From Candidatus Thorarchaeota archaeon (GTDB lineage Archaea; Asgardarchaeota; Thorarchaeia; Thorarchaeales; Thorarchaeaceae), in contig JBHLQM010000045.1 of the NCBI GenBank assembly GCA_048884785.1, positions 1 to 29,758 on the forward strand: DNA of 29,758 nt, written 5' to 3'. Below the pieces are notes generated by a model that had not been told where the DNA came from, did not search any database, and saw only the letters and a list, made by a program, of their open reading frames with translations. The position numbers and the translations under genes are program-made. Positions within the stretch are counted from its first letter, which is position 1; each line of letters starts with the position of its first letter. Of this stretch, positions 2,085 to 9,260 are shown one piece after another.

Positions 2085-2786
2085 ATGCGTGTACTGGGAG
2101 CCTTAATAGTGGGCATTATGCTCCTTAGTCTTTCTTGCAGTGTGGACCACGGGCAAGCTTTTGCAATCTCTCAATCAATGCAGCCAAATGCCTTATGGAT
2201 TGAGACATCAAAGTTGGCGATCTCAAGCTCGGATTCCATATTCAATGCGACTATTTGGATAAATGTGACTGAATCGACTTATGCATGGCAGACTAAAATT
2301 CACTTCAACACAACTTTTCTCAATATATCAGGAGCGGGTTATACCTATGGAAATAGAAGCGTATTCTTCTCCGAGTATACGCCTATATCTATCTCTCCGA
2401 TAATCAACTATGACGAGGGCTACATTATATTTGGAGAGAGTTTGCTTGAAAATGAACAGCGAGCACCTGGCCATGGAAGTCTGGCTTGGGTTGAATTCGA
2501 GCTGACTGATGTAGTATTTCAGACCAATTTCACACAAAACATCTCAATGCAATATGGAATTGATACATTTGTTCTGAATCCGCTTCTTGAAACGATTTCC
2601 TTCGATACAGTGCAAGGTGCAACGATCTCGCTACAATACTTTGTACCAACCACTACAACCACTCCTACTCCTCCCACCACAACTCCTATTCCAACAGAGA
2701 TGCTGATTATCGTAGTTGGCGTTTCGTTGGTGTTAGTTATTGGTATTATTGTATTAAGAAGAAGGAGGTTGAGAGTTAATGAATAA
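2085..2786 (+). CDS. Membrane-anchored cohesin-domain surface protein
   Basis: Signal peptide ending in AFA. Beta-sandwich with the archaeal cohesin pattern FNATIWIN..YAWQTKIHFN..FLNI...INYDEGYI.FGESLL....GHGSLAWVEF. Thr/Pro linker, C-terminal TM and RRRR tail; 7 N-x-S/T sequons. Alternative TTG start at 2073. Confidence 0.75.
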   Translation: MRVLGALIVGIMLLSLSCSVDHGQAFAISQSMQPNALWIETSKLAISSSDSIFNATIWINVTESTYAWQTKIHFNTTFLNISGAGYTYGNRSVFFSEYTPISISPIINYDEGYIIFGESLLENEQRAPGHGSLAWVEFELTDVVFQTNFTQNISMQYGIDTFVLNPLLETISFDTVQGATISLQYFVPTTTTTPTPPTTTPIPTEMLIIVVGVSLVLVIGIIVLRRRRLRVNE

Positions 2787-5529
2787 AGTCAGGGTCCAAT
2801 CTCTGCTCATTATGATGCTACTTATGGTAACAGCCATTCCATCAGCTTCTCTCCTTGCAATTCCGGAAGGCAATCAGAAACCAAGCGCATCAAGTGCGTC
2901 ACTCGATGGCATGGCCAAGGATCTTCTTATCATCCATGACCCAACGAAGTACGCCTTTTTTGGGTGGTACCGACCCACAGATTTCAGTACCACCATATTG
3001 GATCTTTTGAATAGAACTATTCTTTGGGCTTCAAGCCAATCTTTGCCCAATGAAACACGCATTGTCTTCTATGGTGATTCAAACAACACATATGCCGTGT
3101 TTGTACATGATTGGTTAGTAGGTGGGGGCTATCTTACTGAGAATATCTTGAACCAAACCTCTGCGAATATTGAGGAGTTCTCTCCCAGTTACTACGATGA
3201 TATTGATTTAGTCATCTATTGGAATACATTTGCCTATGATCCAACTAACGTAATCGACGCAGGCGTTCCCTTCATCACTGTTTCTGCACTACAGACTGAT
3301 GAAATGGGGATAGGTAGCGGTGTTGTAACTGATAGCTCTCTCAATGAAACATTCTACATTGTGAATAATGGGTACTATCCAACAGAGTCCTATCCTCTTG
3401 GATCTGTATTTTTTGATGATTCATATCGTTATGAAACAACTGAGGCATCTCCCATCGGAAGGGTTCTGGTCAAGGCACAGGTTCCTACTGAAATCACAAA
3501 AATTGAGATGTCTACTATAGAGAATGTGACCATCAACGGGGATGGTAGTGCAGACATAAATTTCACAATTACCATTCCTGAATCTCCGCTAGCTGAAGCT
3601 CTTCGTGAAGCCTTCTTCTCAGATACATCTTCTCTGCAAGAGAATGTGCAATATGATGTTCCCCAAAACAAGACAATCTCTTACACATCTGCTCCCGAAC
3701 AGGCAATCAAAGATGTGACCTTACTGGGAGATGTGACTGGTGATGGTCAGGTTGACATGTCCGACTTGGAGCTGATTTCTGACCATGTAGACAACGCAAT
3801 CGGTGATTCAGGTTTCAACTCTTCTCTGGATCTCAATTGGGATGGCAGGATTGACATGAAGGATGTTGCCATTGCAGCTCGGAATCATGGAAAGACTATC
3901 AGCAACACTGGAAGTTTGAATGTCGGTGGCTATTATAATGGGGAGCTAGTCAACTGCACCGATGTTTTCTATACAGGTCCTGAGGAGTCATTGCCAATTA
4001 ACATGTCTGCAGTGGGGTATGTATGGTATTGCCTTCTACCTGGAGAATACAAAATAAATGGTACTTACAACAGTCTCAAGAGGAGTACAAATATTACTGT
4101 CGTGGCTGGGAAAGTGGCATATGCACAGCTGGATTTTGGAGGAATTGCTCCTCCGGCAGCCCAGTCTGAGGTTGAGCCTGTCAGAGAAGGATATCATCAA
4201 GGCATTGTTATGGAGCAATTGATACTACTAGGCTTTGATATGAACATAACCGATTCTAAAATTGTCGCCTATAGTACCTCCAATATCACAACTATCACAT
4301 TGACGGCATCCTCATCCCATCTTTCTGATCTCATTAGTTCTCCGAATTGGCAGATTCGAGTAGGACCTACAACAGACAATTTGACATCAATAGCGGCAGA
4401 ATTCATCTTCACCAAGATACAGTATATGATGCTACTACTGCAATCAATCCCTGGCGACCAGATTTACAAGACATCATGGCAAATAGGATTTGACTTGCCC
4501 GCTGGAAGTACTCTTCTAGATGAAGGAGTACTTGATGCACTAGAGTGGACAATTGACTTTGGTGAAGGAACCTTCATGCAAGCCAACGTAAGTGTGAGCT
4601 TAGGAAGAGTAATTATCAATGAAACAATGGTTGTGACTGAACATAATATTACTGCAACTGAAGCATACCTGATAGCAGCCCTTGGCAACTACCGGAAGTT
4701 CGCAATTAACTACACCTATTCCGGAACACCTCCTGCAGCAGCGAAAACCACTCCCAAACTGAGTAGCGATTGGTCAAAGAAATGGACATACACAATCACT
4801 CCCGGTGTTTACGAGAAGACAATCAGTTTTGGTCCATTGGGAATCACAATCAAAGCTAGTCCGAAACTTGAGACTGAATGGTACATGGGTTGGGAGCGGA
4901 AATGGACTTGGTCGGGCTACAAGCTTGACTGGTTTGAGAGCTGGATGAAGATTACTCCATCGATAAGAGTTGAAGCCACCGCAACAGCCACTATTCAGTA
5001 TAGTAAGACTTGGTCCTATACCTTTTGGACATGGTCGACCCGATTTACATTCTGGATTGGTGCAGTTGTAGTCTGGGCCAACCTGAAGCTTCAGATTACA
5101 GGTAGCATCACACTGGATGCGTATGGTCAGATTTCAATCTCAACTTGGGCGGAAGCCTATGCATGGTATAAGGCAGGAGTCCGATGGGACGATGGCTGGA
5201 GTACTATTTGGGACCATGGTTCAGGGGCGAAAAGGGGGGATCCTGTCATATCAGGATCAGCAGGTCTAACAGTGACACCTGCTGCCGCCTGCCGTCTGTC
5301 TTTCCTGCTTTATGACGTGGGAGGTCCCTTTGTAGAAGCCAAACCCTATGCACCAATTTCGATTGTCTACTATACTAGTCAACCAAATACATGGTCAATT
5401 AGTCTAAAACTAAAGATCTCGGTTGGAGTTACTCTCGCTGGTTGGCTGAAGAAGCTACTCAATCTGAATGAATACTCAAAAACAGTTGCTGATTTCCTCC
5501 TGAAGTCGTGGTCAGGCACTTGGCCCTGA
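2779..5529 (+). CDS. Secreted multidomain protein with an internal dockerin domain and a Trp-rich beta C-terminal domain
   Basis: N-terminal signal peptide. Duplicated Ca-binding loop-helix GDVTGDGQVDMSDL...DLNWDGRIDMKDVAIAARNHG (nt 3727-3891), followed by an Ig/PEGA-like segment (PGEYKING...NITVVAGK). No C-terminal TM. Overlaps the upstream gene by 8 nt (ATGAATAA). Confidence 0.8.
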   Translation: MNKVRVQSLLIMMLLMVTAIPSASLLAIPEGNQKPSASSASLDGMAKDLLIIHDPTKYAFFGWYRPTDFSTTILDLLNRTILWASSQSLPNETRIVFYGDSNNTYAVFVHDWLVGGGYLTENILNQTSANIEEFSPSYYDDIDLVIYWNTFAYDPTNVIDAGVPFITVSALQTDEMGIGSGVVTDSSLNETFYIVNNGYYPTESYPLGSVFFDDSYRYETTEASPIGRVLVKAQVPTEITKIEMSTIENVTINGDGSADINFTITIPESPLAEALREAFFSDTSSLQENVQYDVPQNKTISYTSAPEQAIKDVTLLGDVTGDGQVDMSDLELISDHVDNAIGDSGFNSSLDLNWDGRIDMKDVAIAARNHGKTISNTGSLNVGGYYNGELVNCTDVFYTGPEESLPINMSAVGYVWYCLLPGEYKINGTYNSLKRSTNITVVAGKVAYAQLDFGGIAPPAAQSEVEPVREGYHQGIVMEQLILLGFDMNITDSKIVAYSTSNITTITLTASSSHLSDLISSPNWQIRVGPTTDNLTSIAAEFIFTKIQYMMLLLQSIPGDQIYKTSWQIGFDLPAGSTLLDEGVLDALEWTIDFGEGTFMQANVSVSLGRVIINETMVVTEHNITATEAYLIAALGNYRKFAINYTYSGTPPAAAKTTPKLSSDWSKKWTYTITPGVYEKTISFGPLGITIKASPKLETEWYMGWERKWTWSGYKLDWFESWMKITPSIRVEATATATIQYSKTWSYTFWTWSTRFTFWIGAVVVWANLKLQITGSITLDAYGQISISTWAEAYAWYKAGVRWDDGWSTIWDHGSGAKRGDPVISGSAGLTVTPAAACRLSFLLYDVGGPFVEAKPYAPISIVYYTSQPNTWSISLKLKISVGVTLAGWLKKLLNLNEYSKTVADFLLKSWSGTWP

Positions 5530-8731: not shown

Positions 8732-8780
8732 GACTGAGCATATTATATTCTGATAATGCTACTAGGAACCTGTGGTAAAA

Positions 8781-9260
8781 ATGGCAGATACGAATGACAA
8801 ACGCAGGGATTTGGAAGAGGAAGTATTCAAGACACTGAGCCACCAGGTAAGACGGGATATTCTCAGGGTCATTGGCGAATCAAAAGGGGCAAAGTTCACA
8901 GAAATCAAGAATGCGACCGGGATTACTGAGAGTGCATCTCTCTCCTACCATCTAAGTGCATTGTCACCCCTGCTGAGTCATGAACAAGACCTCTACAAAC
9001 TGTCAGGTCTTGGGCGGGACACCTATTCTCTGATGAACAAGCTAGCATTACACTCTACTTCTGCAGAGATGCTTGGCGTTGTAGGTAGAAAACTAGGTGC
9101 GACTATCACTGCGAATAGTCTAATGTGGACATCAGCAATTCTGTACTTGTATGTCGCTGAAGGACCAATGGAATTCCTAACGCTGCTCGTCTTTGTTTCC
9201 CTGTTTTCTGTCAGCAACCTCATACTCTACTCCATTGTTCAGTATACTCAGGGCAGGTAG
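8781..9260 (+). CDS. Membrane-tethered ArsR-like winged-HTH regulator (2 TM)
   Basis: VFKTLSHQVRRDILRVI...FTEIK..GITESASLSYHLSAL..L......YKLSGLG, followed by two C-terminal hydrophobic helices. Confidence 0.8.
   Translation: MADTNDKRRDLEEEVFKTLSHQVRRDILRVIGESKGAKFTEIKNATGITESASLSYHLSALSPLLSHEQDLYKLSGLGRDTYSLMNKLALHSTSAEMLGVVGRKLGATITANSLMWTSAILYLYVAEGPMEFLTLLVFVSLFSVSNLILYSIVQYTQGR

Follow-up and report, generated by a model that had tools for sequence, protein, structure and literature searches.

How is a large secreted protein with no membrane anchor of its own held at an archaeal cell surface? This question is raised by two overlapping genes at positions 2085–5529 of a stretch of 29,758 nucleotides (nt; the window) from contig JBHLQM010000045.1 (assembly GCA_048884785.1, Candidatus Thorarchaeota archaeon). 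A preliminary description made from the sequence had proposed that gene 1 encodes a membrane-anchored cohesin and gene 2 a secreted, dockerin-bearing cargo, and that together they form a minimal anchor-plus-cargo surface-display system. Our analysis supports this proposal through the identities of the two domains, their exclusivity in the genome and the linkage of the genes. It suggests that the pair probably mounts an accessory surface protein on a transmembrane-anchored cohesin stalk, one to one, non-covalently and in a Ca-dependent way, with both partners made in matched amounts from the overlapping genes. The only dockerin of the genome overlaps a membrane cohesin gene, so the arrangement looks like a dedicated one-to-one fastening of a surface protein. 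Both domain identities, the gene overlap, the exclusive genome content and the strict linkage across Thor- and Hod/Heimdall-type genomes were established here. The parts on which the argument turns are:

2085..2786, forward strand: gene 1, 233 aa (P0001), type-I membrane-anchored single-cohesin protein (open reading frame (ORF) and AlphaFold2 (AF2) model me115c30ab34d, predicted local distance difference test (pLDDT) 74)
2085..2165, forward strand: gene 1 signal peptide, residues 1–27, ending in AFA; hydrophobic N-terminus, modelled as a helix and then a low-confidence stretch; cleavage site predicted from the sequence
2175..2642, forward strand: divergent cohesin module, residues 31–186 (Foldseek, VIA, hhalign; no Pfam Cohesin match)
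2643..2699, forward strand: Thr/Pro-rich stalk, residues 187–205, read from the sequence
2700..2768, forward strand: transmembrane helix (about residues 206–224) and RRRR (225–228), from hydropathy; model helix 204–231
2779..2786, forward strand: 8-nt stop/start overlap ATGAATAA of genes 1 and 2, read from the DNA
2779..5529, forward strand: gene 2, 916 aa (P0002), secreted, dockerin-bearing, without membrane anchor (ORF and AF2 model mf560be0229ac, pLDDT 72)
2779..2865, forward strand: gene 2 signal peptide, about residues 1–29, the only hydrophobic segment of the protein
3715..3903, forward strand: dockerin of gene 2, residues 313–375, with Ca loops 318–329 and 351–362 (Pfam, phmmer, structure match)

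The layout first described held in all its parts. The two ORFs overlap by 8 nt, and their coordinates and ATGAATAA were confirmed in the DNA. Gene 1 starts at the ATG at 2085; an alternative TTG at 2073 is possible, but the alignments of the homologues begin at the ATG. The signal peptide, cohesin, Thr/Pro stalk, transmembrane helix and RRRR that had been assigned to gene 1 were all located by translation, hydropathy and model, and gene 2 was found to have the signal peptide and the duplicated Ca-loop dockerin ascribed to it, with a single N-terminal hydrophobic segment, no other transmembrane segment and thus no anchor. The domain coordinates given earlier (cohesin 2190–2640, dockerin 3721–3891) fall inside the limits set here (2175–2642 and 3715–3903). 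The Arg codons AGAAGAAGGAGG (AGA AGA AGG AGG) of gene 1 include a GGAGG that lies 10 nt before the ATG of gene 2, and most related loci that share the 8-nt overlap have AAGGAGG at the same spot before their gene-2 start. Read as a Shine-Dalgarno-like motif of gene 2, GGAGG is only a plausible extra, because AGA/AGG may simply be the preferred Arg codons of the host.

Gene 2 carries a dockerin, as had been claimed, and the Pfam score, the phmmer search against PDB and the structural superposition all agree on this point. Pfam Dockerin_1 (PF00404) matched residues 316–365 with 28.5 bits against a gathering cut-off of 22.9 (E 1.7e-6), and it matched 34 of the 37 gene-2 homologues at E ≤ 0.1. The phmmer list was headed by the Bacteroides cellulosolvens dockerin 2y3n_B (E 3.3e-8) and continued with further dockerins, and the modelled dockerin superposed on 2y3n_B with Z 10.3 and a root-mean-square deviation (rmsd) of 1.8 Å over 60 residues (38% identity). 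The Ca-loop stretches quoted earlier sit at residues 317–330 and 351–363. The ligands are D318, T320, D322, D326 and D329 in loop 1 and D351, N353, D355, D359 and D362 in loop 2, and the loops are followed in the AF2 model by helices 327–334 and 360–368, which gives the duplicated F-hand of a dockerin. Positions 1 and 12 of both loops are invariant in all 37 homologues. D or N occupies positions 3 and 5 of both loops and position 9 of the second loop in 33–37 of the 37, while at position 9 of the first loop 20 homologues have D and 10 have E.

Gene 1 carries a cohesin, a divergent one, on which fold, profile search and profile-profile comparison agree. The AF2 model was built from a shallow alignment of eight homologues, and one of the five models was confident (pLDDT 74 versus 42–56). 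Its sandwich core has a pLDDT of mostly 78–91, dropping to 60–62 at residues 91–100 and 121–130, and shows the flattened beta-sandwich (jelly-roll) of the cohesin fold. In the Foldseek search about the top 40 listed matches were all cohesins, the best with E 2.1e-8 and probability 1.0, and the template-modelling score (TM-score) by target reached 0.73. In the VIA-wide search against representatives the top 15 were likewise all cohesins (Z 14.3–11.9, rmsd 2.3–4.0 Å, 127–144 residues), and the first non-cohesin matches were adhesin and pilin beta-sandwiches with Z 11.4 or less.

Homology to bona fide cohesin modules was found by profile-profile comparison. When the family alignment A3 was compared by hhalign with six Pfam-positive cohesin modules, which had been picked by Pfam's own model from two Bathyarchaeota genomes, the probability was 97.1% and E was 7.6e-11 over 133 columns (residues 36–180). 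A profile of 12 family members retrieved 758 proteins at E ≤ 1e-3 from 1.84 billion representative proteins, some of them with 4–7 copies of the module. Among the first ten retrieved proteins that we scanned, three had Pfam Cohesin and four a C-terminal Dockerin_1. In P0157 Pfam Cohesin falls in the same stretch as the family-profile match, and the two matches also overlap at G201:C36:1315-1599. Pfam detects only 15 of 118 strong family members, which makes gene 1 part of a large cohesin clade, most of which escapes the Pfam model. The gene-1 domain was thus found to be a cohesin, as first described, rather than an unrelated Ig or carbohydrate-binding module (CBM) fold; it is the Pfam hidden Markov model that is blind to it. 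Searches of gene 1 against PDB with single sequences and with profiles gave chance matches only, and NCBIfam, PHROGs and PADLOC had no match for gene 1 or gene 2.

The clade, with at least 758 representative clusters, includes scaffoldin-like proteins with 4–7 copies (P0128, P0067 and P0157), and such multi-copy proteins often have CARDB and a C-terminal dockerin. A distant gene-1-type cohesin was also seen on an IMG/VR viral contig (L062:1676-2230; IMGVR_UViG_3300022221_000374, 34.6 kb; 29% identity, E 1e-9).

The cohesin and the dockerin are alone in their genome. We searched the host genome (3.6 Mb, 158 contigs, 91% complete) and found a single Dockerin_1 match (gene 2) and a single family cohesin (gene 1), with no match to Pfam Cohesin; the remaining weak family-profile matches cover the poly-Thr/transmembrane/RRRR tail only. 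The genome-wide count of exactly one dockerin and one family cohesin bears out the earlier suggestion of a dedicated pair. Two Asgard MAG assemblies that consist of one record each, Thorarchaeota bin27 (3.16-Mb chromosome record) and Heimdallarchaeota bin76 (1.39 Mb), likewise have exactly one cohesin and one dockerin apiece, side by side.

The two genes also stay together. Linkage was counted over 19 distinct loci that include the 5′ end of the gene-2 homologue, and in 18 of these 19 assessable loci the gene-1 homologue lies directly upstream of the gene-2 homologue and overlaps it. Nine loci have an overlap of 8 nt (ATGAAT plus the stop), the Hod/Heimdall-type loci one of about 20 nt, and no flanking gene family is common to more than two loci. 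Among 201 evenly drawn Asgard genomes, gene 2 was found in nine; its 5′ end was on the contig in seven, and gene 1 was present in all seven. The two remaining gene-2 genomes have C-terminal fragments at contig ends only, and neither gene was found in 191 of the 201. The co-occurrence of the homologues expected for such a pair was therefore seen both as overlap (18 of 19 loci) and in the assessable sampled genomes (7 of 7). A different arrangement was seen in the one remaining genome of the sample, from Asgard family f15, where a dockerin-like stretch stands immediately upstream of a 216-aa gene-1-type cohesin (G039:C126:923-1825, E 7e-48); this genome, G039, has two further dockerin-like matches.

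Two GTDB families carry the pair, the Thorarchaeota-type family of the window and the Hod/Heimdall-type family. The family of the window includes genomes with loci identical to Thorarchaeota ones, which agrees with the earlier supposition that the host is an Asgard archaeon. Thor-type and Hod-type copies share 55–60% identity. The pair is absent from both same-genus genomes (92–93% complete) and is therefore an accessory cassette.

In a quick maximum-likelihood tree of the cargo, midpoint-rooted and with support from the Shimodaira-Hasegawa-like approximate likelihood ratio test (SH-aLRT) only, three well-supported groups were found, namely Bathyarchaeota, Hod/Heimdall and Thor, with the copy of the window as the deepest Thor branch. 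The Bathyarchaeota genomes G201 (UBA233) and G202 (bin106) have 14–15 Dockerin_1 and 4–5 Pfam Cohesin matches each. UBA233 has 14 dockerins elsewhere and five gene-1-family cohesins away from its cargo copy. On a simple reading of these sequences, the Asgard pair may have arisen from a broader archaeal cohesin-dockerin network that was pared down and hard-wired. The cargo homologues of Bathyarchaeota (L030, L034, L037) have no adjacent anchor, and the bin106 copy consists of the C-terminal half only and is annotated as partial.

Natural fusions of the two partners were also found. P0058 (1239 aa) and P0065 (1032 aa) contain the cargo and a gene-1-type cohesin in one chain (E 4.5e-14 and 2.7e-6), which gives Rosetta-stone-type support for a functional link of the cohesin clade and the cargo. 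Their dockerin region was not detected by Pfam at E ≤ 0.01. These fusions could self-associate or polymerise. In another variant, the cargo homologue P0059 (1477 aa), an SBP_bac_5 domain of the OppA/NikA solute-binding type stands at the N-terminus and the dockerin has been relocated.

These findings fit the following mechanism. After cleavage of its signal peptide, the gene-1 product would present one probably N-glycosylated cohesin on a Thr/Pro stalk, held by the C-terminal transmembrane helix with the cytoplasmic RRRR as stop-transfer signal. Seven N-x-S/T sequons are present in its ectodomain versus 2.3 expected; two of them, N54 and N60, recur throughout the family. Gene 2 would be translated from the same mRNA via the overlapping stop and start, and its product of about 100 kDa, rich in glycosylation motifs and without an anchor of its own, would be secreted by the Sec pathway. 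The internal two-loop dockerin is predicted to bind Ca2+ and to plug into the gene-1 cohesin, and the cargo would therefore be attached one to one, without a covalent bond, to the outside of the single Asgard membrane. Here we infer the binding, its Ca dependence and the glycosylation from the features of the two proteins.

An anchor supplied in trans stands out against the other surface ORFs of this organism, which carry the poly-Thr/transmembrane/RRRR tail in cis; this suggests that the C-terminus of the cargo stays free or that the link is exchangeable. A need for a free C-terminal half would explain why the cargo is anchored in trans by an internal dockerin. The gene-1 ending of poly-Thr/Pro linker, transmembrane helix and RRRR/KRRK recurs in at least three further open frames of the genome, 295 to 1213 aa long (L039–L041; G000 contigs C32:31751-31900, C4:97520-97636 and C33:21273-21413), and this tail looks like the standard C-terminal anchor of the organism for surface proteins. 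Gene 1 was also inspected for a lipobox or an archaeosortase signal (PGF/PEF/PIP-CTERM), and this reading was rejected: the motif is not conserved in the family and NCBIfam gave no match.

Several points weigh against the proposed mounting. Pfam Cohesin (PF00963) gave no gathering-score match for gene 1 or 12 close relatives, even at E ≤ 10, and a caveat attaches to the modelled fold of gene 1, which comes from the shallow eight-sequence alignment and a single confident model. The dockerin is internal, not terminal; the cargo homologue L030 of UBA233 stands without an adjacent anchor; RNA data for the pair were sought among public runs and none were found; and the function of the cargo is modelled from weak structural leads. 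The first of these points, the L030 case and the Z of 11.4 reached by pilin and adhesin beta-sandwiches against the gene-1 model would also suit an explanation without any mutual binding of the two proteins: the dockerin would be a structural Ca module or bind another ligand, the gene-1 domain would be a generic adhesin or Ig-like module, and the two would be merely co-expressed. We regard this as unlikely. It is contradicted by the cohesin homology at the profile level, by the lack of any other cohesin or dockerin in the host genome, by an overlap kept over deep divergence with no other conserved neighbour, and by the natural cargo-cohesin fusions; and UBA233, where the anchor is not adjacent, has its five other family cohesins and 14 dockerins elsewhere.

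Among the known systems closest to the proposed mounting are the single-cohesin surface anchors of cellulosomal bacteria: Ruminococcus flavefaciens ScaE with its X-dockerin (XDoc) adhesin CttA, and Clostridium thermocellum OlpA, OlpC and SdbA. In each of them one envelope-fixed cohesin holds one dockerin-bearing secreted protein, and anchor cohesin structures of this kind (4dh2, 3ul4, 2zf9 and 2bm3) are among the best matches to the gene-1 model. As in X-dockerins, a beta-sandwich precedes the dockerin in gene 2. However, the pair uses a C-terminal transmembrane helix with RRRR instead of S-layer homology (SLH) repeats or a sortase signal, its cohesin is undetected by Pfam, its dockerin is internal, its cargo has no carbohydrate-active enzyme (CAZyme) or CBM domain, and its host is an Asgard archaeon. 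Nor is it a cellulosome, which has a multi-cohesin scaffoldin and several dockerin-bearing CAZymes: with one cohesin, one dockerin and no glycoside hydrolase (GH) or CBM in the cargo, the host has no scaffoldin network.

The pair is also similar to the Archaeoglobus fulgidus cohesin and to proteins of anaerobic methanotrophic archaea (ANME), which are archaeal and non-cellulolytic and use cohesin-dockerin for protein-protein attachment. The non-cellulosomal cohesin of A. fulgidus (PDB 2xdh) matched the gene-1 model with Z 13.2. ANME and the searched Bathyarchaeota have many dockerins and cohesins per genome (14–15 and 4–5), whereas in the Asgard genomes one coupled pair is found, whose cargo is fixed and about 920 aa long. 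Non-cellulosomal archaeal cohesin-dockerin modules are already on record (PMC9012536, citing Peer et al. 2009, Bayer et al. 1999 and Haimovitz et al. 2008), and the Archaeoglobus cohesin/dockerin gene pair is attributed there to Bayer et al. 1999. The SBP_bac_5 fusion in P0059 recalls the dockerin-tagged substrate-binding proteins reported in ANME (PMC9012536).

A further likeness, in working only, is to SlaA/SlaB of Sulfolobales, in which a small membrane-anchored stalk protein, encoded beside a large glycosylated outer protein, holds that glycoprotein at the surface. There is no sequence or fold kinship beyond generic beta-sandwiches (match to 8qox_B), and the joint here would be the cohesin-dockerin plug. 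As a special case of the mounting proposed above, the pair could form a two-component S-layer-like envelope with the anchor as a SlaB-like stalk, the glycoprotein as a SlaA-like canopy whose N- and C-terminal domains would tile the surface of the cell, and cohesin-dockerin as the joint; this we consider quite unlikely. A stalk with a transmembrane anchor does stand beside a large sequon-rich partner without enzyme domain, and the translational coupling suggests stoichiometric production. However, the pair occurs in only nine of the 201 sampled Asgard genomes and in neither of the two same-genus genomes, and this patchy distribution means that it is not a universal envelope component, unlike SlaA/SlaB. 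In our judgement, the 55–60% identity of Thor-type and Hod-type copies is unusually high for an S-layer protein and also argues against this explanation. Cultured Lokiarchaea, which have complex surface proteins and no ordered S-layer (PMC9834061), can be counted on its side.

What, then, is mounted on the stalk? Apart from its signal peptide and dockerin, the cargo was divided as follows:

2911..3495, forward strand: N-terminal alpha/beta domain, residues 45–239, possibly ThuA / class-I glutamine-amidotransferase-like; partly low pLDDT
3496..3714, forward strand: small beta-sandwich plus helix module before the dockerin, residues 240–312, model pLDDT 83–91; sub-threshold Pfam FeS_assembly_P and fn3_5
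3904..4158, forward strand: transthyretin / CnaB / carboxypeptidase-regulatory-like beta-sandwich, residues 376–460 (VIA Z about 9, rmsd 2.0–2.8 Å, 74–80 residues)
4159..4743, forward strand: conserved mixed alpha/beta middle domain, residues 461–655, pLDDT mostly 80–93; no Pfam or PDB match
4744..5526, forward strand: C-terminal Trp-rich all-beta long-hairpin domain, residues 656–916 (model and composition); better conserved than any other part

The cargo matched no family of CAZymes, CBMs, proteases, viral or defence proteins in Pfam, NCBIfam, PHROGs or PADLOC, and the earlier remark that it has no recognisable GH domain stands, with no GH or CBM found in the Pfam and NCBIfam scans. Pfam searches on separate pieces gave sub-threshold FeS_assembly_P and DUF2846 only, PDB profile searches with alignments of the N-terminal, middle and C-terminal domains gave nothing credible, and Foldseek of the cargo model against PDB had no match at E ≤ 1e-3. 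The searches we ran found no relative of known function for the middle and C-terminal domains. The resemblance of residues 45–239 to ThuA clusters (Atlas structure match, TM-score 0.58) is a lead only, and this N-terminal domain has no catalytic Cys; residues 30–660 contain only two Cys, neither of them family-invariant. Two candidates were discarded: the oligosaccharyltransferase (OST) subunit 1 as a relative of the middle region (Z about 7 over residues 238–654, with only about 135 scattered residues aligned), and the single BFVD match of the cargo at E ≤ 1e-3 (probability 0.14, rmsd 37 Å), which is not meaningful.

The C-terminal half is retained in every architectural variant. Residues 661–916 contain 22 Trp and no sequon, and family-wide the C-terminal domain has 7.7% Trp and 0.14 sequons per 100 aa; the corresponding sequon figure is 0.30 for the dockerin and 2–4 for the other modules. 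The dockerin and the C-terminal domain, as the sequon-poor regions of the cargo, are thus natural candidates for interfaces, going by sequon content. The strands of the C-terminal domain run up to about 25 residues in a hairpin meander, at a pLDDT of about 57–81. Atlas structure matches (TM-score 0.70–0.83 by query) were found at the C-termini of uncharacterised bacterial (including actinobacterial) and fungal proteins, some of which carry DUF8402, DUF8403 or DUF7223; these argue against an outer-membrane barrel as such and are silent on function. A profile search for shorter proteins with this domain returned only fragments of the same family, and the VIA matches of residues 661–916 to SusC, FhaC, C5b8 and perforin-2 were discounted as evidence (rmsd 6–11 Å). 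Our best guess is that the cargo is an accessory surface (envelope) protein whose working end is the conserved C-terminal half, made up of the unmatched alpha/beta domain and the Trp-rich, sequon-free hairpin domain, through which it would self-associate or touch other cells, surfaces or hydrophobic ligands.

It is very improbable that the cargo is a tethered membrane-active or lipid-binding effector, whose Trp-rich amphipathic hairpins would insert into, or extract lipid from, a partner, prey or vesicle membrane, the joint being a releasable leash that presents a previously unknown membrane- or lipid-interacting beta-hairpin domain to neighbouring cells as a contact or attack device: the long, Trp-rich, sequon-free hairpin strands, the weak matches to MACPF pore hairpins and outer-membrane barrels, the retention of the C-terminal half and the accessory, patchy distribution would suit it, but the structural matches are not meaningful (Z 6.2–7.0, rmsd 6–11 Å, Foldseek probability 0.02–0.16), no MACPF, aerolysin or other toxin family was seen at the sequence level, similar folds end many uncharacterised secreted proteins, including actinobacterial and fungal ones, and the pLDDT of the domain is low. 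If true, it would mean a dedicated contact or attack device on the closest prokaryotic relatives of eukaryotes.

The proposed one-to-one mounting gives a concrete, testable example of how one Asgard surface protein could be membrane-mounted, by a self-contained plug-and-socket cassette whose cargo, about 920 aa long, is strongly conserved. Full-text literature searches turned up no description of an Asgard cohesin-dockerin pair. Cultured Asgard archaea have no ordered S-layer, and their "complex surface proteins" are thought to mediate cell-cell contacts relevant to eukaryogenesis (PMC9834061). As the Pfam Cohesin model misses most of a large clade, whose proteins have up to seven copies of the module, cohesin-dockerin surveys of archaea and uncultured bacteria probably undercount.

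Around the pair, the window contains unrelated housekeeping-type neighbours, namely a pyridoxal phosphate (PLP)-dependent enzyme, a 2-oxoacid dehydrogenase acyltransferase domain, a prenyltransferase-like protein, a radical S-adenosylmethionine (SAM) protein and helix-turn-helix (HTH) proteins. In the two same-genus genomes the genes that flank the pair find only non-syntenic matches of about 40% identity. No direct or inverted repeats flank the pair in the window and the cargo family was not found in IMG/VR viral contigs, and a mobile-element reading was rejected on these grounds. At 1–807 and 8772–9260 of the window, a few kb either side of the pair region, lie the genes of two small paralogues that combine an N-terminal HTH_20/DUF7347 domain with a hydrophobic C-terminal part.

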